IMG/VR virus record: IMGVR_UViG_3300027753_000020
Coordinates: 1 to 53,104 of that record
Length of the DNA stretch: 53,104 nucleotides
Strand: one strand, 5' to 3'
Origin: a virus
Taxonomy: Duplodnaviria; Caudoviricetes
The notes beneath the pieces are model-generated. The model saw only the letters and a list, made by a program, of their open reading frames with translations. It had not been told where the DNA came from and ran no database searches. A program made the translations under genes and the position numbers. This document shows positions 1 to 32,098 of this stretch, one piece after another. Every line of letters begins with the position of its first letter. Within the stretch, counting starts at the first letter, position 1.

Positions 1-1
1 A

Positions 2-295
2 AGTGATTTTTATCATAGTGTAGTAACGTATGATGGCAATAGAGTAAGAGCATATGTTAATGGTAGATTGCGTCAAACAGATAGTAATTATAATAACGGT
101 ACATTGCAGGATCAGCCTAGCAACTACCCAAAAATAAATGGACGTGATAATCCAAGAACAACGGCTACATCAACAGGAAGTCATGATGTTGCATACTTTG
201 CTGTGTATGATAGACCGTTAGATGATATGGAAGTCCTTCATAATTACCAAGCATGCGCTGAAAGATTTGAACTTCCATACAACCCGTATAATTAG
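2..295 (+). CDS. 5'-truncated LamG/concanavalin A-like domain virion protein (C-terminal part)
   Basis: Frame is open from the window start: SDFYHSVVTYDGNRVRAYVNG...AVYDRPLDDMEV matches the LamG_3 pattern (H-x-x-x-TYDG...YVNG...YDR-x-L). Confidence 0.7.
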   Translation, partial: SDFYHSVVTYDGNRVRAYVNGRLRQTDSNYNNGTLQDQPSNYPKINGRDNPRTTATSTGSHDVAYFAVYDRPLDDMEVLHNYQACAERFELPYNPYN

Positions 296-306
296 GAAAA
301 GAATAA

Positions 307-2265
307 ATGGCAATACTTAAAAGCACAATAATAGACGATATAGGGTACCTATCATTACCTGTGGGCACAGAAGCTCAAAGACTTGCAACAGCTGCAGGTA
401 CACTAGTTTATTTTACTAGTTTAGGCGGAACATCATGGACAGTGCCAAGTGGTGTTGACAGTATTGAAATATTAGTAGTTGGAGGCGGCGGAGGCGGCGG
501 CTCTGACATGGGCGGCGGCGGCGGAGCTGGCGGCGTTATATATGACGGCAATTATCCAACAGTACCAGGACAAAGTATTTCACTTTCAATTGGCGGTGGT
601 GGTGTAGGCGCATCAGCAGGTGTAGGACAAGCAAGAGGTAGTAACGGCGGTGACACTACATTTGGAACTATCACAGCACATGGTGGCGGTGGTGGTGCAA
701 GTGCTCACGATAGATCAACTTCACCAGCAGGTGATGGAGCATCAGGCGGCGGAGCTGCAGGTGGTGCTGTTCCTCCGAGTGGTGGTGCAAACGGTACTAT
801 TAACGATAACGGACTTATTGGTAACGGCGGCTATGGCGGCGGTGCAAGAGGTAGATCAATATATCCAGACGAAGGACATGATGGCTCGTGGGGTTCAGGT
901 TATTGGTATCCAGGCGGCGGCGGTGGTGCCGGCGAACCAGGGTTTTCTTATCCAAGACCACATGGCGGCAAAGGTGCAGAAATTAAAATCACTGGAGAAA
1001 CTATTTTCTTTGGTGGAGGCGGAGGTGGCTCAGGCTACTCAAACATCGGCGGCGATGGCGGCCTAGGTGGCGGAGGTGGCGGTGCAGTTGGAACAACATT
1101 CGGCGGCGTAGGATACAATAACGGAGCCAATGGATCGGGCGGTGGCACAAGTACTTGGGCAAATACACCAGGCGGTAATGCTGGCGCAAACAGTGGTGGC
1201 GGAGGTGGTGGCGGAGCTCACTATAACTCTAACAACTACGGCGGTAACGGCGGGTCGGGTATTATTATTTTAAAATACAACACAACTAACCCAACAGAAG
1301 AAACAGCACAAGGTGCATTAAGAATAAACAGCAGCACTGGCGAACCAGAATTTTATAGTTCAACAGCAGAATGGCAAAGTTTAGCAATACCGTTTAAAGA
1401 AAGATCGCACATTACAACTAACTACATGTTGGGCGGATACAAAAGTTCAAGTGCATGGAACAACGTTAATAGATGTGCTATATCAACAGACACAACAGTT
1501 AATTTAGGCGATAATTCATTAGAACGTTCATTTAACTATCAGTCAGGTGCATGTAGTAAAAACGTAGCATGGGTATTTGGTGCAGGTAACGGACACGCTG
1601 TAACATCAAATTATGTTATAGGATTTAACATGCGTACTGATCAACAGTACACTGGTACATTTGATAGAAACCTAAGTGGCGGCAAATTGCAAGACGGTAC
1701 TGTGTGGAAAGAACATTATATGGCATGGACGTCTGGAAGTGCAGAACTTGACAGATATAACATGCTTACTGAAACACAATCAACTGTAGGCATTGGTGCT
1801 CCTGGCGGATCTACTTCGCAAGCATGGGGTATGAGTTGGGAAAATGAAGGAATGTTTACTAGAAATAACGATGGTACATTGTTTGATTTTACTACTGAAA
1901 CATATGGTACATGGAGTGGAACTTATCCAAGTAATCATCACCAACAAAAATCAATGAATAGTAAACTTAACTATTGCTGGGCAGGTAACGAAGGTGGGTA
2001 TGCAAGTGGAGCAAACTTCCGTAGAACTAACTGGACTACTAGGTCAACAGCAAGCACTTACGCTAAACCAGTAAACGGTGGTGAAGAAAACTTTACAATG
2101 GGTCAAGACCATGCTTACCAGCTAGGTTGCTTTAATGGTGCTCAAAATAATTTAAGTTTCCGTTGGAACTATTATACAGAGTCAGGCTTCCAAGGCGGAA
2201 CATCTATGGAGCCAAAAGGAAAAGCAGGATCAAGTTCGGGATTAGGAGCATGGAGAGATAACTAA
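307..2265 (+). CDS. Glycine-rich domain virion/fibre-associated protein with C-terminal putative beta-propeller
   Basis: 652 aa. WTVPSGV..IEILVVGGGGGG...GGSGIIILKY is the typical phage glycine-rich domain. The C-terminal ~300 aa have kelch-like repeats and are paralogous to the next ORF. Confidence 0.7.
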   Translation: MAILKSTIIDDIGYLSLPVGTEAQRLATAAGTLVYFTSLGGTSWTVPSGVDSIEILVVGGGGGGGSDMGGGGGAGGVIYDGNYPTVPGQSISLSIGGGGVGASAGVGQARGSNGGDTTFGTITAHGGGGGASAHDRSTSPAGDGASGGGAAGGAVPPSGGANGTINDNGLIGNGGYGGGARGRSIYPDEGHDGSWGSGYWYPGGGGGAGEPGFSYPRPHGGKGAEIKITGETIFFGGGGGGSGYSNIGGDGGLGGGGGGAVGTTFGGVGYNNGANGSGGGTSTWANTPGGNAGANSGGGGGGGAHYNSNNYGGNGGSGIIILKYNTTNPTEETAQGALRINSSTGEPEFYSSTAEWQSLAIPFKERSHITTNYMLGGYKSSSAWNNVNRCAISTDTTVNLGDNSLERSFNYQSGACSKNVAWVFGAGNGHAVTSNYVIGFNMRTDQQYTGTFDRNLSGGKLQDGTVWKEHYMAWTSGSAELDRYNMLTETQSTVGIGAPGGSTSQAWGMSWENEGMFTRNNDGTLFDFTTETYGTWSGTYPSNHHQQKSMNSKLNYCWAGNEGGYASGANFRRTNWTTRSTASTYAKPVNGGEENFTMGQDHAYQLGCFNGAQNNLSFRWNYYTESGFQGGTSMEPKGKAGSSSGLGAWRDN

Positions 2266-3296
2266 TGGCTACATTTAAAAATACAAATATTGACGATACT
2301 GGGCACTTAACACTGCCAGGAACTGGTGACGGCGATGCACCGCAGAACGGAGATATACGTTATAATGGTAACTTTGGCAGAGTAGAAGTATATCATGACA
2401 AAGACGGTGCGCAATGGACTAACATGGCTATACCTTTCCTTACTAGACAAATTTTAACAGTAGGATATATACACGGCGGCTATGCAGCTAGTGTTGTTTG
2501 GGATGAAACGAATAAAACATTATTTGCTACAGACACAACACTTGATCTAGCTGGCAAACAAGAAAAAGGCCACAACTACAAAGACAGTATGCACAACAGA
2601 GATTTGTGTTGGACTGTAGGTGGTGCTGCTAATGCTCACTGTGCAAGTTCAAACGGTATTACTTGTTACAATCACAGAACAGAAAATAACTTAACAAGTG
2701 GATACACTAGAACACACACTTGGAGTACCAACAACATTGGTATTATCCAGCAAGGATTAGAAACAGCATGGATAACAGGTGGCGGTAGTAGTCAAATTAG
2801 ACGTTTTAATATGATTACACAAACACTTGGCGCACAACAAGGTAATTCAAATACATCAGGAGGTATTTGGGGCTTACAACACGAAAATTACGGTATTTGG
2901 TGTACTAATAACCAAGGCTTTAAATGGGCATCTGAACAACCTTATACACGTTCAGCAACAGCACCACAAGGTGATAAACACCAACATTGTTTAATGTTCA
3001 AACATGCTAACATGGTAGGCGGACGTGAAGGCAACCCAAGTTCAAACTGGAGAGAAACAAACTTTTATAGTGATACAACGCAAGACGTTATTGGTTCAAA
3101 AGGTTACTATGGCGGCGAAGAAAATATGCTCGCAGGTCAGGATTGGGGCTATGCTGTAGGTTGGTATCAAGGGTCACACGTTGTAAGTAGTGCAAAGTTT
3201 GTATATGCAACAAGATCAAGTGCCACTGGTGGCGCAAGTCTTAATGCTAAAGGAGTTAATGGTCAAAGTTCAGCAACGATGAGCTGGAGAGATTAA
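2265..3296 (+). CDS. Virion-associated protein, paralog of the upstream ORF without the Gly-rich insert
   Basis: 343 aa, TAATG coupling. Shares N-terminus (MATFKNTNIDDTGHLTLP vs MAILKSTIIDDIGYLSLP), AIPF, GGEEN..GQD..Y and a C-terminal WRD. Confidence 0.7.
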   Translation: MATFKNTNIDDTGHLTLPGTGDGDAPQNGDIRYNGNFGRVEVYHDKDGAQWTNMAIPFLTRQILTVGYIHGGYAASVVWDETNKTLFATDTTLDLAGKQEKGHNYKDSMHNRDLCWTVGGAANAHCASSNGITCYNHRTENNLTSGYTRTHTWSTNNIGIIQQGLETAWITGGGSSQIRRFNMITQTLGAQQGNSNTSGGIWGLQHENYGIWCTNNQGFKWASEQPYTRSATAPQGDKHQHCLMFKHANMVGGREGNPSSNWRETNFYSDTTQDVIGSKGYYGGEENMLAGQDWGYAVGWYQGSHVVSSAKFVYATRSSATGGASLNAKGVNGQSSATMSWRD

Positions 3297-3337
3297 CTTG
3301 GTAAATATATACGTATATAACAACCAAGGAGTTTAAT

Positions 3338-4207
3338 ATGACACAAGACGTACAAAATATTGACCGTAGAAAACAGTACATGTCTGATCACAGATATCAC
3401 AGTAAAGTTAATACTGATGTGTCTATGTTAGGTGATACTGAAAAAGATGCAATCAGTTACGCAATTAATAAAGAATGGACTAATCCAAAGTTCAAGTTGA
3501 GATGGTTTGTAGGTCAAGCTCAAATCACACCTTATAGTAAATTAAGACAGTATTTGCTTGAAATCAAATCTAAAGAAGAATCAATTGAAAACATTGAGTA
3601 TGAAATTGCAAAATATGATGTAGAAGTTAGACGTTTTAAGCGTATGGCTGAAGAAGCGCATGATGAATTAGATAGAGAACTAGCTTCAGTAGAATCATGG
3701 AATGCTGAACGTAATCACATTATGTCAAAACGTAGACTACAAGATTGGTATTTAGAAAGACAACACTTGCTTGATCTATTGCAAGAGTTTATTGAAAGCG
3801 ATGAAGCACAATTACCAGATGGTAGCGGCCGCACATATATGGACATTCTAAATACAGACGAAGAAGATATTTACGAAGCAGACTATTGGACCAACAGACT
3901 TGCAAAGCAAGCTGCAACTGATATGATCTTTTATGGTCGTATAGGTACGGGTAATATGGATGCTATTTTAAGTGTAGGTTCAGAACAACAAGCTGAGATA
4001 TTAGCACTGACAATGAATTATAGTACACAATTACAAAGTTATAATTTACAGTTACAATCAGCAGCTGAAGAAAATTTAAAACTAAACGGCAAGGTAGATC
4101 AACACAAAGATCTTTTAGCACCTACTGATAAATACAGTAAGATAGAACAACCGACATCAACAAATGGAGGCCCTGAGGAGACAATAAATGACGTATATAA
4201 TGTTTGA
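3338..4207 (+). CDS. Conserved coiled-coil phage protein, function unknown
   Basis: 289 aa, helical and E/K/Q-rich. AAGGAG SD and GTAAATA late-type motif upstream. Confidence 0.6.
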   Translation: MTQDVQNIDRRKQYMSDHRYHSKVNTDVSMLGDTEKDAISYAINKEWTNPKFKLRWFVGQAQITPYSKLRQYLLEIKSKEESIENIEYEIAKYDVEVRRFKRMAEEAHDELDRELASVESWNAERNHIMSKRRLQDWYLERQHLLDLLQEFIESDEAQLPDGSGRTYMDILNTDEEDIYEADYWTNRLAKQAATDMIFYGRIGTGNMDAILSVGSEQQAEILALTMNYSTQLQSYNLQLQSAAEENLKLNGKVDQHKDLLAPTDKYSKIEQPTSTNGGPEETINDVYNV

Positions 4208-4721
4208 AACAGTAGCAGGCAATGATCCTAGACTTGTACCAGAGATAGAAATGATAGGCAATGACTGGCACTTTACTTTTGCTAGAGTTACAGGCACTCC
4301 TGTAATTGATTGGTTAAACCCTACAACAATTACAAAAGAAATGTTTGATGCAAGAAACTTTACTAACGCACTTGAGGGTGAAGTTGGTATTATGAGATCA
4401 GTAACTGACCCTGCAGACATTATACAGCCAACAAGTTTTGGTGATAACGATTATGAAAAAGTTGCATACAGACTTAATTCAATTGATGAATCAAACACTG
4501 TAGCATTGTTAAAAGCTCAAATGTTAAATTGGGCAGAAAATAACTTTGATGATGATTCAGGTCGTATCCAAATTAGAGCGCAAGTTCCGGGGCTAAGAAC
4601 ATTAAAAGAAACACAAATGTATATGGCTACGTATTTTGAATGGGAGTGTGCATACACACATCAACAAGATAAAGCGCCTCAATTTGAGACTAAGAAATTT
4701 TCTCAAACATTATACGATTAA
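4188..4721 (+). CDS. Hypothetical protein
   Basis: 177 aa, GAGGAG SD upstream, GATAAATA at 4127-4134. Confidence 0.6.
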   Translation: MTYIMFETVAGNDPRLVPEIEMIGNDWHFTFARVTGTPVIDWLNPTTITKEMFDARNFTNALEGEVGIMRSVTDPADIIQPTSFGDNDYEKVAYRLNSIDESNTVALLKAQMLNWAENNFDDDSGRIQIRAQVPGLRTLKETQMYMATYFEWECAYTHQQDKAPQFETKKFSQTLYD

Positions 4722-4725
4722 TCAC

Positions 4726-4754
4726 TTTACTTTTTAATTAAAAGGTGCTATACT
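4726..4754 (+). promoter_or_regulatory. Sigma70-type promoter with extended -10
   Basis: TTTACT (4726-4731), 17 nt spacer, TGcTATACT (-10 at 4749-4754), upstream of the U32 gene. Confidence 0.5.
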
Positions 4755-4780
4755 AAGTATAAAGTATAGTGCCTTTTTTT
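4740..4780 (+). terminator. Rho-independent terminator
   Basis: GGTGCTATACT / AGTATAGTGCC stem (two G-U pairs) followed by T7. Confidence 0.55.
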
Positions 4781-4794
4781 ACGGAAAGAAATAG

Positions 4795-6510
4795 ATGAGA
4801 AAAATTTTTAGTATACCTCTAAATCCTAAGTTATCAAATGAACAGTATGTTGAGTTTGTTAATTTTATTGGTGAATACAAAGATCACATTAAAGATGTGT
4901 ATTTTACATGCAGGATTGCTCCATTTGCACAAGATGCTATGGGCGATATTTTTGTACAAGATGATGATTATCAACTTGCTATAGAACAAGCACTGTTTGT
5001 ACAAAAACAAACAGGTGTTCCAGTAAGTGCTACATTTAATAATATTCAGGTTCCTCCTAGTCAAAAAAATCTAGATACTTTTATAAAGAGCTTTAAACCT
5101 GTTTACGATGCAGGAGTGCGTGTTGCTACTATACCGCATACACATTGGATGGCAACAGGACAAATACAAAAAGCATTTCCTGAATTATACATAAAAAATA
5201 CTATATTACGAGATGTAAGAATAGCATCAGAAATTGTAAGTTTAGCAAATTACGGGTTTGACTATATAAACCTTGATAGAGATCTTATGCGTGATAGAGA
5301 TACGCTATTACGTCTTAAAGAAGCAAAGGTGTGGATTAAAGAAAACTACGGCAAGGACATACACTACAGTCTTTTAGCAAATGAAGGTTGTAAAGGTAGT
5401 TGTCCAATGATGGTCGAGCATTTCGAATACAATAATACTAGAGCAGGACAAGAAGCACAATATTTTAATAATCCTATTAGTAGAGTAAGTTGTCCTAAAT
5501 GGGACGTTGACGATCCTAGTATACATTTAAAGACAGCTAATATAACTCCATGGAGAGAAGATTGGGAAGAATACCTTGATGAATTAGGTATTGATGTATT
5601 TAAAATGCACGGACGCGAAGCGGTTAGTAGACTATACGAAACTATGGATATTGTAAAACGCTGGGCAAATGGCGAAGCATTACTGTATGATAACTTTGAA
5701 CAATATTTAGAAAGCACAAACTTAAAAGATAAGCCCATTGATGCATGGCGTAAAAAAATTAAAAACTGTAAGTTTGATTGTTGGGAATGTCATTTTTGTG
5801 ATGATATTTACAAGATTAAATCTAAAATTGAACATACTGATAAAGTTAAACATGTAGCAGAGAGCATACTAATAAGTGGTGTACCAACAGTAAACACTCG
5901 TATACCTGGGCTTACAAGTCCGCGAGTTCAAACAGTATTAAATCATATTGCAAGTGGTTCTACACATTACATGGAAGTAGGCGTAGCACAAGGAGCAACG
6001 TTCTGTGGTGCAATTAAAGACAACAATTTAAATGCTGTAGCAATTGACAACTGGCAGGAAAACATACAACCTGCTGATCCAAATGCACCTAAGTTACCGC
6101 ATAATGAAAAACAAAACTTTTTAAATAATTTAGAATCTTATAAGCAGGATAATACTGTTGATGTAATTGATAATGATTTATTTGAAGCTGATGTATCACA
6201 GTACAACGGTAAAATAGACATGTTCTTTTATGACGGGCCTCATGATGCAACAAGTACAGAACAAGCCGTACTACATTATAAAGATGTATTTGCACAAGAA
6301 GCTGTATTAATATTTGATGATGCAAATTGGCAAGGAGTTGTCGAAGGCGCACGTAACGGAATAAACAAAGCAGGATTTGAAGTTGCATATGAAAAAATGC
6401 TGTTATGTGATGTAGAAGATTTAGAAAGTTGGTGGAATGGATTGTACATAGTTGTACTTTCTAAACCTAAAGAAGAATTAATATCAATTGAGGAAATAAC
6501 AGAATGGTAA
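4795..6510 (+). CDS. U32-family (peptidase U32-like Fe-S) domain fused to class I SAM methyltransferase (Methyltransf_24-like)
   Basis: N-terminal part: INLDRDL, LANEGCKGSCP, SRVSC, GIDVFKMHGRE, CKFDCWECHFC. C-terminal part: MEVGVAQGATF, FFYDGPH, LIFDDANW. Confidence 0.7.
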   Translation: MRKIFSIPLNPKLSNEQYVEFVNFIGEYKDHIKDVYFTCRIAPFAQDAMGDIFVQDDDYQLAIEQALFVQKQTGVPVSATFNNIQVPPSQKNLDTFIKSFKPVYDAGVRVATIPHTHWMATGQIQKAFPELYIKNTILRDVRIASEIVSLANYGFDYINLDRDLMRDRDTLLRLKEAKVWIKENYGKDIHYSLLANEGCKGSCPMMVEHFEYNNTRAGQEAQYFNNPISRVSCPKWDVDDPSIHLKTANITPWREDWEEYLDELGIDVFKMHGREAVSRLYETMDIVKRWANGEALLYDNFEQYLESTNLKDKPIDAWRKKIKNCKFDCWECHFCDDIYKIKSKIEHTDKVKHVAESILISGVPTVNTRIPGLTSPRVQTVLNHIASGSTHYMEVGVAQGATFCGAIKDNNLNAVAIDNWQENIQPADPNAPKLPHNEKQNFLNNLESYKQDNTVDVIDNDLFEADVSQYNGKIDMFFYDGPHDATSTEQAVLHYKDVFAQEAVLIFDDANWQGVVEGARNGINKAGFEVAYEKMLLCDVEDLESWWNGLYIVVLSKPKEELISIEEITEW

Positions 6511-8012
6511 AAAAGATAGTAATATTTGGCGGTGGAACTAGTGGCTGGCTAACAGCGGCATACCTAACTAATAACTTAATTGATCCTGTTGAAATACAAC
6601 TAATTGAAGATGCATCAAAAGGACCAATTGGAGTTGGAGAAGGCACACAGCCTCTCACAGCCTCTTTTTTATATAAATGTGGAATAGAAGCAAAAGACTG
6701 GATGAAACCTAGTAATGCTTCATTTAAGTATGGGGTAGAATTAACAGGCTGGAACGATGAGCCGTATTTTGTAGATAATGATGTTGTTGACAATGTTCTG
6801 CCTGCGCCGCATTTACCCGTAAGTAAATATTTTGTAGACAAGCCTTACAGTGAATTTGCAAAATGGCACCCAGCATATAGACTAGCAAAAAATAATACAG
6901 CAACTAAGATTGATGACGAAACTGATATTAATTTCAATGTAGGCCTTGATAGTTACGGTGCTGTACATTTTAGTGCTTATGATATCATTGCTACTATTAA
7001 AGACTTAATACTACACAAAATTAATTATGTTAATACTAAAATTACACAAATAGGCAGTGACGTAAATGGTATTACAAAATTAATTGACGAAAACAATAAC
7101 GAGTATACCGGTGATTTGTATATTGATTGTAGTGGATTTCAATCCTTGCTATTAGGAAAAACATTAAAAGAACCTTTTATAAGTTATGACAAATGGTTAA
7201 TAAATGATAGTGCTGTTGCAATGCCAACACAATATACTAATCCTGAAGAAGAATGTTTTCCATATACAAAAGCAACTACAATGAAAGCAGGTTGGCGTTG
7301 GACTATTCCTACATACCATCGTGTTGGCAATGGATATGTATATAGTAGTAAACATATAACTCCAGAGCAAGCAGAAGCAGAGCTACGTGAAGCCATTGGA
7401 GAATATGATGCTCCTGCTAATCATTTAAAAATGCGTATAGGATCACATCAAAATATTGCTGTAAAAAATGTTATTGCTGTTGGACTAAGCGCAGGATTTG
7501 TCGAACCGTTAGAAGCAACAGGCATTACATTTACAACAGCATTAGTTAGTTCTTTTACTGACTTAATGAATCGTTCACGTAATGACTGGTCTGAACAACC
7601 GCAAGCAATGCTAAATCGAGGCTTCTATGAAATGAATATAGAAATCTTAACATTTATATTTGCACATTATTACTTCAGTAATAGAAATGATACTCCGTAT
7701 TGGCAAGAGATAAGATCACAAAGTTTAAATGACTTACCTGATGATGCACAAATGATGATGAGTCAATATTATCCTAACATACCAGAATTTGTATTTTTTA
7801 GTCCTGGTAGTATGTTTAGTAGTGTACAATGGTGGTCAATGTTGCATGCCGGCGGAGCATATCCAAATGCAAAATCTACTCTTACTGATAAACAAAAAGA
7901 CTATGTAGAACACTTTATGAAAGTACAGGATTTACGTGTTGAAAGTTCAAAAGAATTATTTGGCAATCATTATAAATTTTTAGATAAGTGGTACAGTGAA
8001 TGGAAAGAGTAA
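6504..8012 (+). CDS. Flavin-dependent tryptophan halogenase family protein (PrnA/RebH-like)
   Basis: GGGTSGW (GxGxxG), IGVGEGT, ASFKYG (catalytic Lys position), YIDCSGF, GWRWTIP (WxWxIP), GFVEPLEATG. Confidence 0.9.
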   Translation: MVKKIVIFGGGTSGWLTAAYLTNNLIDPVEIQLIEDASKGPIGVGEGTQPLTASFLYKCGIEAKDWMKPSNASFKYGVELTGWNDEPYFVDNDVVDNVLPAPHLPVSKYFVDKPYSEFAKWHPAYRLAKNNTATKIDDETDINFNVGLDSYGAVHFSAYDIIATIKDLILHKINYVNTKITQIGSDVNGITKLIDENNNEYTGDLYIDCSGFQSLLLGKTLKEPFISYDKWLINDSAVAMPTQYTNPEEECFPYTKATTMKAGWRWTIPTYHRVGNGYVYSSKHITPEQAEAELREAIGEYDAPANHLKMRIGSHQNIAVKNVIAVGLSAGFVEPLEATGITFTTALVSSFTDLMNRSRNDWSEQPQAMLNRGFYEMNIEILTFIFAHYYFSNRNDTPYWQEIRSQSLNDLPDDAQMMMSQYYPNIPEFVFFSPGSMFSSVQWWSMLHAGGAYPNAKSTLTDKQKDYVEHFMKVQDLRVESSKELFGNHYKFLDKWYSEWKE

Positions 8013-8575
8013 ACCTTTTCCGCTCTGACTTCTTTGTAGGCAGAGTAGGCAATGAAAATCAGATAGCTGATCTTAATAAACAGATGTTAGTATCACAAGA
8101 GTCTAATGCTGGTGCAATTGCTAATAGCAACGACGGATGTTGGCGAAGTACAGTTAAGTATGACAACATAGATTGGCTTTTAGATGGAGTTAAGATATTA
8201 ACAGAGAATGCAATAGACTACTATTCATCTTTAGATTCAACGTTTAAGAACCATATAACTAAGAATCATATTAGTATTGACTACTGGTCAAACATTAATA
8301 AACCTGCAAGTAGAAATGTGTTGCATAGTCATGTAGCAGATACTTTTGCCGCTGTTTATTATGTACAAGGTTCTAAGACAGGTCCTTTAAAATTTATAAA
8401 TCCTGCAAATGTACTAAATGATTGCAATTCAGTAAGTCCGTTTGTACGTGAAGTATTAGTTCATCCACATGATGGAGAATTAATATTATGGCCTGCATGG
8501 GTTCCTCATGAAGTCGAAGTAAATAAATCAAACAGAGATAGAATGAATATAGCATTTACAATACAGGTATCTTGA
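8000..8575 (+). CDS. 2OG-Fe(II) oxygenase (TIGR02466-like)
   Basis: WSNIN...HSH...AAVYYV...ILWPAWVPHEV...RMNIAF. Confidence 0.8.
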   Translation: MERVNLFRSDFFVGRVGNENQIADLNKQMLVSQESNAGAIANSNDGCWRSTVKYDNIDWLLDGVKILTENAIDYYSSLDSTFKNHITKNHISIDYWSNINKPASRNVLHSHVADTFAAVYYVQGSKTGPLKFINPANVLNDCNSVSPFVREVLVHPHDGELILWPAWVPHEVEVNKSNRDRMNIAFTIQVS

Positions 8576-9315
8576 TGTTTAAAAAGCAAGAAAAAATAGA
8601 ATTTTTTAGTAAGATTGACGGGGTAGCAGACGCTTACCCTATTATTCCTGCTAATAAATTTAGGCCAAAATGGATGTCTCGTTGTAAACAAAATTACATT
8701 GATAATAAAGATAGAAACTTGCCAAGTCATTTATATCAATGCCCGGGCATATTTGATCTATACAATTATGGATTTATATTACCTTTATGGCACGATGTAA
8801 TAATTAAGACACAAGGCGGACAGCCAGGATTTCAATATGTTAATCCAAGCGAAACATTATCTAAATTACTTGAAGGTGATCCTGTTACTAGTCAACCACC
8901 AGATATATCTAGATGGTTACCAAAAAGACCTCATAGCATTGAAGCTATAGTAAAATTTAATACTCCGTGGCATGTAGTTACTCCTAAGAATGTTAAATTG
9001 TTAATTACACCAATTGCATATCCGGATACTTTTGAATTCGAATCTTCTATAGGCGTACTTGATCCTGCAATTAATACAGAATTAAATATACAAGGATTTT
9101 GGAATGTTCCAAATGGTGAACGGAAGTTATCGGCAGGAACTCCAATAGCACATATTATACCGTTGACAGAGCAAAAGTATGATCATATAATAAGAGAAAT
9201 GACTCAAGAAGATTGGAAGTTTTTTAAAAAACGTTTGTTCTGGGGAACACATTCTTTTAAACATAAAAAGTCTTTAATGAAAGACATGTATAAAAAGCAT
9301 TTTAGGAGAGAATAA
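8575..9315 (+). CDS. Conserved CPG/GTP-motif protein (possibly dUTPase-like beta fold), paralog 1
   Basis: QCPGI...GFILPLW...KFNTPW...G.LD...AGTPIAHIIP. ATG at 8575 overlaps the upstream TGA. Confidence 0.55.
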   Translation: MFKKQEKIEFFSKIDGVADAYPIIPANKFRPKWMSRCKQNYIDNKDRNLPSHLYQCPGIFDLYNYGFILPLWHDVIIKTQGGQPGFQYVNPSETLSKLLEGDPVTSQPPDISRWLPKRPHSIEAIVKFNTPWHVVTPKNVKLLITPIAYPDTFEFESSIGVLDPAINTELNIQGFWNVPNGERKLSAGTPIAHIIPLTEQKYDHIIREMTQEDWKFFKKRLFWGTHSFKHKKSLMKDMYKKHFRRE

Positions 9316-9728
9316 TGCCGTTAACAGAAACTAATACAAATGAATTTGTAACTTACACTCAAAAACTAAGAGAAGCTAAAGACCAATATACAGAACGTAA
9401 AGTACAAAAAGATAGAATAAAACATGTAGGTTGGTTTAATGCTGTATTATCACAAAAAGATATAGTGCTAACATATAAAGAAGATGGCAAGTCTATACAA
9501 GTTATTGCATCAAAGAATGGCAATGGTGTTGGCCCGTTACCTCAGCCACCTATTACAATAGAAAATGTATTAGGCGAAGATCGAGAAGAAGTACATCATA
9601 TTGTGTTTTATACATCACCGCAAGGAGATACTAAAGTTGTACATATAGACGATGTTGAATGTTGGGTAATCACTAACACAATGATGAATCAAATAGACAA
9701 AATTTATAAAAGGTCAATAAATGTTTAA
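9315..9728 (+). CDS. Hypothetical protein
   Basis: 137 aa, AGGAGA SD, TAATG coupling. Confidence 0.55.
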   Translation: MPLTETNTNEFVTYTQKLREAKDQYTERKVQKDRIKHVGWFNAVLSQKDIVLTYKEDGKSIQVIASKNGNGVGPLPQPPITIENVLGEDREEVHHIVFYTSPQGDTKVVHIDDVECWVITNTMMNQIDKIYKRSINV

Positions 9729-10485
9729 TTGGTTTAAGAAAAAACCTAAAGTAGAATTTGTCTGTTTATTTCCAGAAATAAAAGAAGTGATGCCTGTTGT
9801 TCCAGCAAGTAAAATAAAGTTTAAATGGGTAAAGACAGCAATAGACGACTGGAAGAAAACACAACAAGAAATGAAAGATACTCCTGTTAAGTTAACACAT
9901 TTTGCTAGATGCCCTGGCATGCACAAAATTATGCGTGAAGGTTGGATATTACGTAGCTGGTGTGACTTTACAGTTAAAACTGACGGTGACGGAAAGACAT
10001 TTCAATGGGGGTCTCCAGTTTCTCAAAAAAGTATGGATGCAGATCATATTTGGAAATGGGATTATTTGTCGCATCATGCAGAATCTATATTTGGTCAAAC
10101 AGATAAAAGAAACACCCTAGATACTGTTCTTAAAGTGCAAACGCCTTGGATTGTATATGTTCCAAAAGGGTATTACTTATTATGCATGCCTTGTCCTTAC
10201 CCAGACAATCATAGCTTTACAGCAGCAACTGGATTCATAGATGGTGACGAAGGACCAAATTTTTTAAATGTACAGTTATACTGGCATGAGTTAGATGGTA
10301 TAACAAAAATTCCTGCAGGTACTCCTCTAGCACAATATATGCTTGTTAAAAAAGATAGCATTGAAGGCGATGTAAGAAGCGTAACAGACAAAGATATAAA
10401 AAATCTACGTTTAAGATCAACTATATTAGACAATCGTTTTATTGTAGATTATAAACCGTTAAAGGAAGTAAAGTGGCATGAGTAG
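9721..10485 (+). CDS. Conserved CPG/GTP-motif protein, paralog 2
   Basis: RCPGM...GWILRSW...KVQTPW...PYPD...G.ID...AGTPLAQY, colinear with 8575-9315. Confidence 0.55.
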   Translation: MFNWFKKKPKVEFVCLFPEIKEVMPVVPASKIKFKWVKTAIDDWKKTQQEMKDTPVKLTHFARCPGMHKIMREGWILRSWCDFTVKTDGDGKTFQWGSPVSQKSMDADHIWKWDYLSHHAESIFGQTDKRNTLDTVLKVQTPWIVYVPKGYYLLCMPCPYPDNHSFTAATGFIDGDEGPNFLNVQLYWHELDGITKIPAGTPLAQYMLVKKDSIEGDVRSVTDKDIKNLRLRSTILDNRFIVDYKPLKEVKWHE

Positions 10486-30475: not shown

Positions 30476-30503
30476 AAATAGCACCTCCGGGTGCTATTTT
30501 TTT
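30476..30503 (+). terminator. Rho-independent terminator
   Basis: AAATAGCACC-TCCG-GGTGCTATTT followed by a T-run. Confidence 0.8.
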
Positions 30504-30517
30504 CACTAAATATTAAT

Positions 30518-32098
30518 ATGGCACAATCACTCGATGGCGTCTTAATCAAAAAGGCGAATAGACAAGAAAAATTTACAGAAGCGCAAATGGAGGATTTGCT
30601 AAAATGTATGGATCCTGATGAAGGGTACTTGCACTTTGCAAAACACTTTGCTTTTATACAACATCCTGTAAGGGGTAAGTTGTTGTTTGATCCTTACGAG
30701 TATCAGTTAAGACTGATGCACAGTTATCATAACTATCGTTTTAATATTAATATGATGCCAAGACAAACAGGTAAAACTACATGTGCTAGTATATACCTAG
30801 CATGGTATGCAATGTTTAAACCGGATCAAACTATTCTTGTTGCAGCACACAAGTACACAGGCGCCCAAGAGATTATGTCACGTATAAGATTTGTTTACGA
30901 AACTTGTCCTGATCATATTAGAGCAGGAGTTGTAAGTTATAATAAACAATCGATTGAGTTTGAAAACGGTTCTCGTATTGTAGCACAAACTACAACAGGC
31001 AATACAGGACGTGGTATGTCCATATCATTACTATACTGTGACGAGTTTGCATTTGTGCAACCTAACATCGCAGAAGAGTTTTGGACATCAATATCTCCTA
31101 CACTAGCAACAGGTGGTCGTGCTATTATTACTAGTACGCCTAATAGTGATGAAGATACATTTGCTACTATTTGGAAACAAGCAGAAGAGAAGTTTGACGC
31201 ACACGGCAATGAAACAAAACTAGGGTCAAATGGCTTTCATAGTTTTGTTGCACAATGGGAAGAACATCCTGATCGTGATGATGAATGGAAGGTAGCAGAA
31301 ATAGGTCGCATTGGAGAAGAGAAATTTAGGCGTGAATACGGCTGTGAATTCTTAGTATTTGATGAAACACTTATTAACTCAATTAAACTTGCGGCCATGG
31401 AAGGCAAAGCGCCTACACTTAACATGGGGCAAACTAGGTGGTATAAGAAACCATCAAGTCAGTACACTTATGCTGTAGCATTAGATCCATCAATGGGTAC
31501 TGGCGGAGATCATGCCGCTATACAAGTATTTGAATTACCTAGTTATGAACAAGTAGCTGAATGGCAACATAACCAAACAGCAATACCTGGACAAATACGT
31601 GTGTTAGCAGATATTTGTAGATACTTAGAACAAGAAACTAAGAATTCAAACGGCATATACTGGAGTGTAGAAAATAATGGCATCGGCGAAGCAGCACTAA
31701 TCGTTATAAACGATTTCGGGGAAGAGAATATACCAGGCCTATTTGTGTCTGAACCAATTCGAAAAGGACATGTGCGAAAGTTCCGTAAAGGCTTTAATAC
31801 TACACACGGTACAAAGATTACAGCCTGTAGTCGACTAAAGACTATGATTGAAAACGATAAAATGATTGTACGTAGCAAACCCTTATTATCAGAACTAAAG
31901 GGGTTTGTTGCTACAGGCTCTAGTTATCAAGCAAAGTCAGGAATGACAGATGACTTAGTAAGTGCAACACTACTTGCTATTAGAATGATGACAGTACTCA
32001 AAGATTGGGATCCTAGGATCTACAATTCCTTTAACCAAGCAGAAGATGATGGCGATTATGAACCACCAATGCCAATCTTCGTTAGTAGCAACTATTGA
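30518..32098 (+). CDS. gp17: Terminase large subunit (T4 gp17-like)
   Basis: Start MAQSL at 30518. Walker A PRQTGKTT, Walker B LLYCDE, IITSTPN, nuclease ALDPS, DDLV. Confidence 0.95.
   Translation: MAQSLDGVLIKKANRQEKFTEAQMEDLLKCMDPDEGYLHFAKHFAFIQHPVRGKLLFDPYEYQLRLMHSYHNYRFNINMMPRQTGKTTCASIYLAWYAMFKPDQTILVAAHKYTGAQEIMSRIRFVYETCPDHIRAGVVSYNKQSIEFENGSRIVAQTTTGNTGRGMSISLLYCDEFAFVQPNIAEEFWTSISPTLATGGRAIITSTPNSDEDTFATIWKQAEEKFDAHGNETKLGSNGFHSFVAQWEEHPDRDDEWKVAEIGRIGEEKFRREYGCEFLVFDETLINSIKLAAMEGKAPTLNMGQTRWYKKPSSQYTYAVALDPSMGTGGDHAAIQVFELPSYEQVAEWQHNQTAIPGQIRVLADICRYLEQETKNSNGIYWSVENNGIGEAALIVINDFGEENIPGLFVSEPIRKGHVRKFRKGFNTTHGTKITACSRLKTMIENDKMIVRSKPLLSELKGFVATGSSYQAKSGMTDDLVSATLLAIRMMTVLKDWDPRIYNSFNQAEDDGDYEPPMPIFVSSNY

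Follow-up and report, generated by a model that had tools for sequence, protein, structure and literature searches.

A marine phage gene joining a divergent U32-like barrel to an O-methyltransferase-like domain

The fusion gene and its distribution

The window analyzed here is the whole 53,104-nucleotide stretch of the virus record IMGVR_UViG_3300027753_000020 (IMG/VR; Caudoviricetes), and the subject of this study is one of its genes, an open reading frame (ORF) here called X, in which an N-terminal U32-like barrel (N-domain) and a C-terminal S-adenosylmethionine (SAM) methyltransferase (C-domain) are joined in a single chain. The ORF and the features around it, among them a partner gene C and an intervening ORF D, are listed in Table 1. 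A preliminary description made from the nucleotide sequence had quoted four short motifs and a Methyltransf_24-like domain in one frame, and all four motifs were indeed located in the 571-amino acid (aa) ORF. Pfam reported Methyltransf_24 (PF13578) at residues 394-509 (E 1.5e-11; 45.5 bits, cut-off 26.3) as the sole family on X; the methyltransferase domain is complete, as the preliminary description had it. In PHROGs, phrog_1458 matches X across its entire profile (E 1.2e-168) and phrog_36869 covers the first 347 residues, while the label T4-GC 354 comes from the annotations of cyanophages P-HM2 and P-SSM4, where the product is called 'hypothetical protein'. X is thus a full-length member of groupings that are unannotated ('unknown function') and carry no functional claim.

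Table 1 Features of X and its surroundings in the window. Residue numbers refer to X. Counts were obtained by tblastn over 80 fetched viral loci, which are the closest relatives of the query.
Feature	Position	Residues	Strand	Loci of 80	Description
Fusion ORF X	4795..6510	1-571	+		single ATG-started frame, 571 aa; member of phrog_1458 and T4-GC 354 (cyanomyoviruses)
N-domain	4795..5895	1-367	+		modelled eight-stranded TIM barrel (about residues 1-300), then Cys-rich helical tail
NEGCKGSCP	5380-5406	196-204	+		E197, C199, C203; directly after seventh barrel strand
SRVSC	5479-5493	229-233	+		C233, then invariant W236
FKMHGRE	5599-5619	269-275	+		K270, G273, R274; eighth barrel strand
CKFDCWECHFC	5767-5799	325-335	+		CX3CX2CX2C motif
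C-domain	5896..6510	368-571	+		class I SAM methyltransferase; Methyltransf_24 match at 5974-6321
Partner gene C	3338..4207		+	74	289 aa, phrog_1409, T4-GC 353; helical, conserved W..R...Q...G....GN motif
ORF D	4188..4721		+	40	177 aa, between C and X; closer relatives only
Hairpin	4740..4781		+		15 bp then U run, between stop of D and start of X
phrog_1417 gene	307..2265		+	70	652 aa; also fibre-like matches
phrog_1417 gene	2265..3296		+	67	343 aa; PHROG match
Trp-halogenase-family gene	6504..8012		+	52	Pfam match
2-oxoglutarate (2OG)-Fe(II) oxygenase gene	8000..8575		+	61	Pfam match
Two phrog_7084 paralogues	8572-9315, 9721-10485			56 and 54	unannotated function; 3' of halogenase and oxygenase genes

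The preliminary description had allowed that the fusion might be an artefact of assembly. That assembly or gene calling joined two separate genes was ruled out, with practically no chance left to it, by three kinds of record. By tblastn, X is covered over at least 80% in one piece in 121 of the 126 matching cultured-phage records, which hold the fusion as a single frame; all 126 matches, from Synechococcus and Prochlorococcus myoviruses plus three Ralstonia records, are less than 60% identical to X. Two independent viral contigs with the fusion (L046 and L049) are 99% identical. Furthermore, two DNA runs belonging to separate studies, of which either run may be the source sample, each yielded a contig that crosses the domain junction (spanning 3300-8100 and 3473-7805, with 2 and 3 differing letters). 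A relative is encoded by at least 575 viral contigs, the number confirmed among 600 candidate stretches, and 1989 protein clusters of a large protein collection match X at E <= 1e-3; among the matches listed, PF13578 was carried by 116 of 120 clusters and the Pfam Peptidase_U32 family (PF01136) by none of them. These data indicate that the fusion is real, widespread and common in marine phages.

In the full-text literature searched, including searches with locus tags and with 'T4-GC 354', no account of a U32-methyltransferase fusion was found, in line with the preliminary description, which named no characterized protein of this architecture. The passage of Iyer et al. 2010 that describes the dioxygenase and halogenase cluster of phage Syn9 does not mention X (PMC2938197), and the supplementary tables of Sullivan et al. 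2010, which defines the T4-GCs, may list the virion status of T4-GC 354 (PMC3037559).

Fold and remote homology of the two domains

A search with residues 1-367 among 1.84 billion representatives yielded 287 relatives at E <= 1e-3, many of them stand-alone proteins (320-380 aa), with a subfamily of 400-460 aa and a few members bearing N-terminal extensions. Sixty-five relatives, 22-47% identical to the window protein, were aligned. C325, C329, C332 and C335 are invariant in all 65, and at least 90% of the sequences share E197, C199, C203, E208, H209, C233, D267, K270, G273 and R274. The quoted motifs are therefore more than chance occurrences, and a pattern scan gave ExCx3Cx4[ED]H and Cx3Cx2Cx2C as family signatures. 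In two 50%-cluster representatives, P0125 and P0127, the N-domain is joined to other C-terminal regions, which could not be aligned with the methyltransferase; P0127 matches no Pfam family.

The N-domain was modelled by AlphaFold2 with the 65-sequence alignment as an alpha/beta barrel of eight strands that leads into a Cys-rich helical tail, with a predicted local distance difference test (pLDDT) score of 91.8 and a predicted template modelling (pTM) score of 0.89. Exhaustive structural comparison with VIA placed the U32 protein Mk0906 (5d88) first of 48,161 chains (Z 16.6, root-mean-square deviation (rmsd) 3.2, 227 of 247 residues aligned to model residues 1-280), and the runner-up, an MTHFR chain, followed 3.5 lower (Z 13.1). 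The possibility, admitted in the preliminary description, that the domain is no U32 TIM barrel was thus checked by structure prediction and did not hold. Foldseek also ranked 5d88 first (E 5.9e-7), though with a narrow lead. The nearest named ESM Atlas clusters were 'Peptidase U32 (Fragment)' (score 0.97) and clusters with PF01136 in 20% of their members. Searches with single sequences returned little: residues 1-367 had no Pfam match even at E <= 10, X had no NCBIfam match at E <= 0.1, and phmmer found nothing in the PDB for the N-domain at E <= 10. The 65-sequence family profile likewise gave nothing significant against the PDB, its best matches being de novo TIM barrels (E 0.24).

Profile-profile comparison was more telling. 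With hhalign, the family profile matched a 15-sequence U32 profile, built from proteins of Escherichia coli and four other genomes and including RlhA, at 96.5% (E 8.6e-10, 149 columns), and the bacterial 400-460-aa subfamily alone reached 95.6% over 218 columns, extending to the CxRW and KxxGR motifs. The signal rises with the depth of the U32 profile, from less than 1% for a single UbiU or UbiV sequence through 49.5% for four E. coli U32 paralogues to the value for 15 sequences. Two unrelated TIM-barrel families used as controls gave 0.24% and 0.14%, with control profiles of two sequences each, a depth unmatched to that of the U32 profile. The four-sequence E. coli U32 profile itself found no PDB chain at E <= 0.001. 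In the alignment, C199 and C203 fall on C170 and C177 of TrhP, which are cysteines one and two of the U32 cluster. The C-x-[KR]-W of SRVSCPKW (C233) matches the U32 'CRW', which contains the fourth cysteine (TrhP C197), to within one residue, and the KxxGR of FKMHGRE lies on the U32 'KIEGR', as seen in the alignment of the bacterial subfamily.

Judged from these profiles and from the predicted fold, the N-domain is a divergent TIM barrel of the U32 superfamily, a remote homologue that is not a member of Pfam Peptidase_U32. The preliminary description had assigned it to the U32 family; the fold and the remote homology uphold this assignment at superfamily level, and Pfam membership and the cysteine motif do not. 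Conserved cysteines bind a [4Fe-4S] cluster in UbiU/UbiV, the ligands in UbiU being C169, C176, C193 and C232, and CX6CX15CX3/4C is given there as the motif of most U32 families (PMC6747719). The pattern in the N-domain family is CX3CX29C plus the invariant CX3CX2CX2C of the tail, so that counterparts of three of the four U32 cluster ligands are kept with changed spacing. The tail motif (C325-C335) has no counterpart in U32 proteins; its cysteines may complete the first, U32-like site or form a second one, a candidate metal site.

Conservation in the C-domain was assessed from 40 aligned full-length proteins, at least 90% of which keep E394, G396 and G400 of the SAM motif, D418, the D480-G-P-H483 segment and the D508-D-A-N-W512 segment. 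The AlphaFold2 model of full-length X had a pLDDT of 84.4 and a pTM of 0.63. When the methyltransferase domain was compared with VIA, the best 14 rows were all O-methyltransferases (Z 16.2-17.5), including Rv0187, MeT1, SafC, TomG and bacterial catechol O-methyltransferases (COMTs); the first row of another kind followed at Z 15.8 and a tRNA m1A58 methyltransferase at 15.7. An Asp/Asp/Asn metal-binding triad is the signature of cation-dependent O-methyltransferases. The sole near-significant PDB match of the C-domain profile was a CCoAOMT-like protein of Staphylococcus aureus (3ntv, E 0.026), and in this marginal alignment D480 and D509 fall on the two Asp, with Asn511 one residue off register. 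Methyltransf_3 was not among the families that Pfam reported on X. Because the best structural rows and 3ntv both point there, the C-domain looks like a cation-dependent class I O-methyltransferase, to which it is closest by a modest margin. A Foldseek search with the full-length model returned mixed two-domain matches (PKM2, PRMT5) at rmsd above 20 Å and was not interpreted.

Partner gene C and the genomic neighborhood

Upstream of X lies a constant partner gene, C, which had been overlooked in the preliminary description. The six viral loci in which C was not found each have less than 2.3 kb of sequence upstream, and in three loci C is located downstream on the opposite strand. Moreover, a C homologue directly precedes X in three distant phages, namely P-HM2 (as T4-GC 353), P-SSM4 and the Ralstonia jumbo phage RP12. 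The RP12 form of X consists of the N-domain only (346 aa, without the methyltransferase) and is followed by a DUF401/CitMHS-type permease. Since RP12 keeps C with the N-domain alone, C goes with the U32-like domain rather than with the methyltransferase. In that locus (L001, 4335-7056) the C homologue, the N-domain-only gene and the permease stand in overlapping or abutting frames.

Protein C is acidic and helical; it matched no known family by Pfam or PHROG function, and the ESM Atlas gave no usable lead. Complex prediction of the N-domain with C scored 0.00 in two runs without controls, which has no bearing either way on binding. In the closer clade, a variable acidic linker leads to a conserved [DNE][VIL]Y[NSR] tail at the end of C. 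The ending is ...[ED][DN]I or ...IQNS in other clades, and P-HM2, P-SSM4 and RP12 show no ending of these kinds. The C-terminal tyrosine of C was considered as a universal substrate and rejected, as distant clades do not have it. ORF D has no Pfam or PHROG match. The hairpin in the 73-base gap between D and X (-17.9 kcal/mol, z -5.36, with none of 200 shuffles folding as well) resembles an intrinsic terminator. An RNA-library contig (4677-4822) crosses it, and RNA-library contigs from two studies cover parts of X at 99% identity or more; such libraries can contain DNA, so these contigs are no proof of transcription.

Both phrog_1417 genes have a relative in the T4-GC 351 'sericin-like' protein of cyanophages. 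On the other side of X, the genes from 6504 onward overlap each other; the halogenase and oxygenase genes are absent from the position 3' of X in P-HM2 and P-SSM4, and the phrog_7084 genes may be equivalent to what has been described in the Syn9 cluster as a 'dUTPase-fold protein with a conserved cysteine'. The window record is 15% complete according to CheckV and carries genes for a myovirus sheath, tube, baseplate and terminase, a UvsX-like protein and a helicase, and its terminase (30491-32098) is closest to those of PA5oct-like jumbo Pseudomonas phages (53%). Because of this gene content and terminase affinity, the virus is probably an uncultured marine jumbo myovirus of about 300 kb or more rather than a classical cyanophage. 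In the window, the T4 late-promoter word TATAAATA has a single occurrence, against about 8.6 expected.

Among cellular genomes, a scan of one genome per species found 24 loci with the 400-460-aa subfamily, three of them in a complete Dehalogenimonas chromosome and the others in Dehalococcoidales, Phycisphaerae and deltaproteobacterial metagenome-assembled genomes (MAGs) and in several further MAG contigs that are possibly viral. Their neighbors vary and include reductive dehalogenases, URO-D-like genes and two-component regulators. The three copies in Dehalogenimonas CP139473.1 (L010, L022 and L023) are stand-alone and each lies beside reductive-dehalogenase genes, and two of them adjoin a 714-715-aa B12-binding radical-SAM protein fused to PqqD. 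An Arcobacteraceae MAG contig (L030; 95-1714 and 1726-3387) holds two family genes in tandem, reminiscent of the paired UbiU/UbiV and TrhP1/TrhP2. The occurrence of the family in strict anaerobes fits an oxygen-independent chemistry. As hmmsearch found no C-like or methyltransferase-like neighbor at any of the 24 bacterial and archaeal loci, these contexts do not directly inform the phage module.

Proposed activity and comparison with known systems

To our knowledge, the substrate has been established for only three U32 hydroxylase systems, whose mechanism is still under study. According to published work, the characterized U32 systems all introduce a hydroxyl group at an aromatic or heteroaromatic carbon and do so without O2 (PMC6599085, PMC5727448, PMC10990095, PMC6747719). 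By analogy, hydroxylation followed by methylation is the best reading of X, and it builds on what the analysis shows, namely the fold, the remote homology, the conserved motifs, the fusion and the linkage to C. The N-domain, working together with the co-inherited helical protein C, would turn an aromatic or heteroaromatic C-H into C-OH in an O2-independent reaction like those of TrhP, RlhA and UbiU/UbiV, with C199, C203 and C233 positioned where U32 hydroxylases hold their [4Fe-4S] cluster. The fused C-domain would then methylate the new hydroxyl group, for a net conversion of C-H to C-OCH3. This two-step logic (C-H to C-OH to C-OCH3) is suggested because a U32-like barrel and a COMT-like domain stand in one chain, just as they are paired in a Bacillus subtilis operon. 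Hydroxylation may be the ancestral core, because the N-domain and C occur without the methyltransferase, and the many stand-alone N-domain forms among the relatives are consistent with a hydroxylase as the core activity. As substrate, a peptide, protein or small aromatic compound produced in the course of infection would be likelier than tRNA, which is disfavored because of the dependence on a partner, the lack of the extensions of TrhP and RlhA, the tailoring-enzyme and permease neighbors and the bacterial contexts; our leaning away from tRNA is a weak one. Metal binding, the hydroxylase chemistry, the order of the steps and the class of substrate are those parts of this explanation that we infer, and X with C acting in this way on such substrates is a tentative proposal, to which we give somewhat less than an even chance.

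Several observations weigh against it. The U32 spacing CX6CX15CX3/4C is not kept in the N-domain family, and the third U32 cysteine has no counterpart there. PF01136 (cut-off 22.4 bits) matches neither residues 1-367 at E <= 10 nor the whole record, touches one of the 65 N-domain relatives (E 0.033) and has no match in the Dehalogenimonas genome that holds three copies of the family. For the C-domain, the lead of O-methyltransferases over tRNA methyltransferases is small (Z 17.5 versus 15.7), and two of the three COMT-type metal ligands align, in a marginal alignment. Moreover, the 80 viral loci behind the neighbor counts are not independent samples, the hairpin suggests that X and C may not share one transcript, and TrhP with TrmR, the nearest precedent of known function, works on tRNA, which speaks against our leaning on the substrate.

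The N-domain might be a U32 scaffold with a different chemistry, either another redox or radical reaction through the site containing CX3CX2C or a metal-stabilized binding function, in which case the methyltransferase would act on a hydroxyl or other atom not made by the N-domain. The spacing CX3CX2C is the canonical one of radical-SAM enzymes, which counts for this explanation, as do the pairing of the N-domain with other modules in P0125 and P0127 and the radical-SAM and reductive-dehalogenase genes found beside relatives. The cysteine pattern is also unlike any U32 motif described so far (PMC6747719). However, Pfam found no Radical_SAM (PF04055) match on X, and no radical-SAM chain was among the top 50 fold matches, an absence that alone does not exclude the fold. 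The CX3CX2C (C325-C332) follows the barrel and not its first strand, the four cysteines would leave no open iron for SAM, and the positions that align with the U32 cluster site rank among the family's best conserved. We therefore rate this explanation as rather unlikely, if a serious competitor.

X might instead be a phage version of the TrhP/TrmR pathway that converts the pyrimidine C5 of tRNA (U34) or rRNA to 5-methoxyuridine or 5-methoxycytidine and so retunes decoding in infection. The domain pair is the same as in B. subtilis yrrM-yrrN-yrrO (PMC6599085), several relatives are named 'predicted O-methyltransferase YrrM' by JGI, the best marginal PDB match is the CCoAOMT-like 3ntv, and the methyltransferase-less form of RP12 would suit a host that finishes the modification itself. 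Yet the alignment shows no equivalent in the family of the C-terminal extensions found in TrhP and RlhA, C has no counterpart in the tRNA pathway, no tRNA gene lies within the 53-kb window, the usual neighbors are halogenases, oxygenases and fibre-like genes, and the bacterial relatives stand in non-translation contexts, which together make an RNA target quite improbable in our view. The isoelectric point was dropped as a test of RNA binding, as E. coli TrhP is acidic too (5.8, versus 5.75 for the N-domain). Even less probable is that X modifies a virion protein, such as the upstream fibre- or propeller-like proteins or C, for example by turning an aromatic side chain into its methoxy derivative. 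SafC and TomG, which act on DOPA-like catechols, are among the best fold matches of the methyltransferase, X stands behind phrog_1417 and fibre-like genes in most of the closest loci and behind T4-GC 351-353 in cyanophages, and C of the closer clade ends in the tyrosine-containing tail; but BLAST found no phrog_1417 gene in the RP12 locus, the tail is missing in P-HM2, P-SSM4, RP12 and several X-bearing viral clades, and a fixed place in a T4-like structural module can be mere synteny.

Within the preferred reading of hydroxylation followed by methylation, a bolder and unlikely version is that X and C form an oxygen-independent 'methoxylase' of a kind not described before, with which marine phages would methoxylate a macromolecule belonging to the virion or to the infected cell, at either an aromatic residue of a protein or a pyrimidine C5 of nucleic acid. 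If so, the modification would belong to a new phage-encoded class, and X would be the first enzyme of U32 type to have a partner from outside U32 and a second metal site. The presumed hydroxylase is physically joined to the enzyme that would use its product, which should make that product easier to find, since mass spectrometry can screen for a stable methoxy group. The family is abundant and present in many cultured cyanomyoviruses that can be grown. X could show what an oxygen-independent hydroxylase does in viruses of oxygen-producing hosts, and its altered cysteine pattern and constant partner gene offer handles on how U32 enzymes use their clusters.

Among known proteins, the solved U32 catalytic domain of Mk0906 is the best structural match to the N-domain, at a sequence identity of 10%; the Cys-rich tail (residues 300-345) and the methyltransferase domain of X have no counterpart in it. 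RlhA (YdcP), a U32 family protein and part of the profile that matched the N-domain, makes 5-hydroxycytidine (ho5C2501) in 23S rRNA (PMC5727448); it differs from X in its length of 653-667 aa with long C-terminal extensions, in its rRNA substrate and in having no fused methyltransferase. UbiU/UbiV, which act with UbiT in O2-independent hydroxylation during ubiquinone biosynthesis, are also U32-superfamily barrels that work with a second protein (PMC6747719), and prephenate is the oxygen donor of this hydroxylation (PMC10990095). In contrast, the partner C is no U32 paralogue, the cysteine motif of X differs from theirs, and hhalign with either single sequence stayed below 1%. The closest likeness is to TrhP (YegQ in E. 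coli; TrhP1/TrhP2, or YrrO/YrrN, in B. subtilis) and TrmR (YrrM). TrhP shows profile homology to the N-domain over its residues 25-178, including the first two cluster cysteines, whereas X is without the C-terminal domain of TrhP and the third U32 cysteine and has the added CX3CX2CX2C. X is a single chain with a synteny-constant helical partner, while TrhP and TrmR are separate proteins, and the action on tRNA belongs to them. In the B. subtilis operon yrrM-yrrN-yrrO, as described in the account of that pathway, the U32 genes yrrN and yrrO stand with the COMT-like yrrM, whose product turns 5-hydroxyuridine (ho5U34) into 5-methoxyuridine (mo5U34) (PMC6599085). There, as in X, a U32-type domain is paired with a COMT-like methyltransferase.

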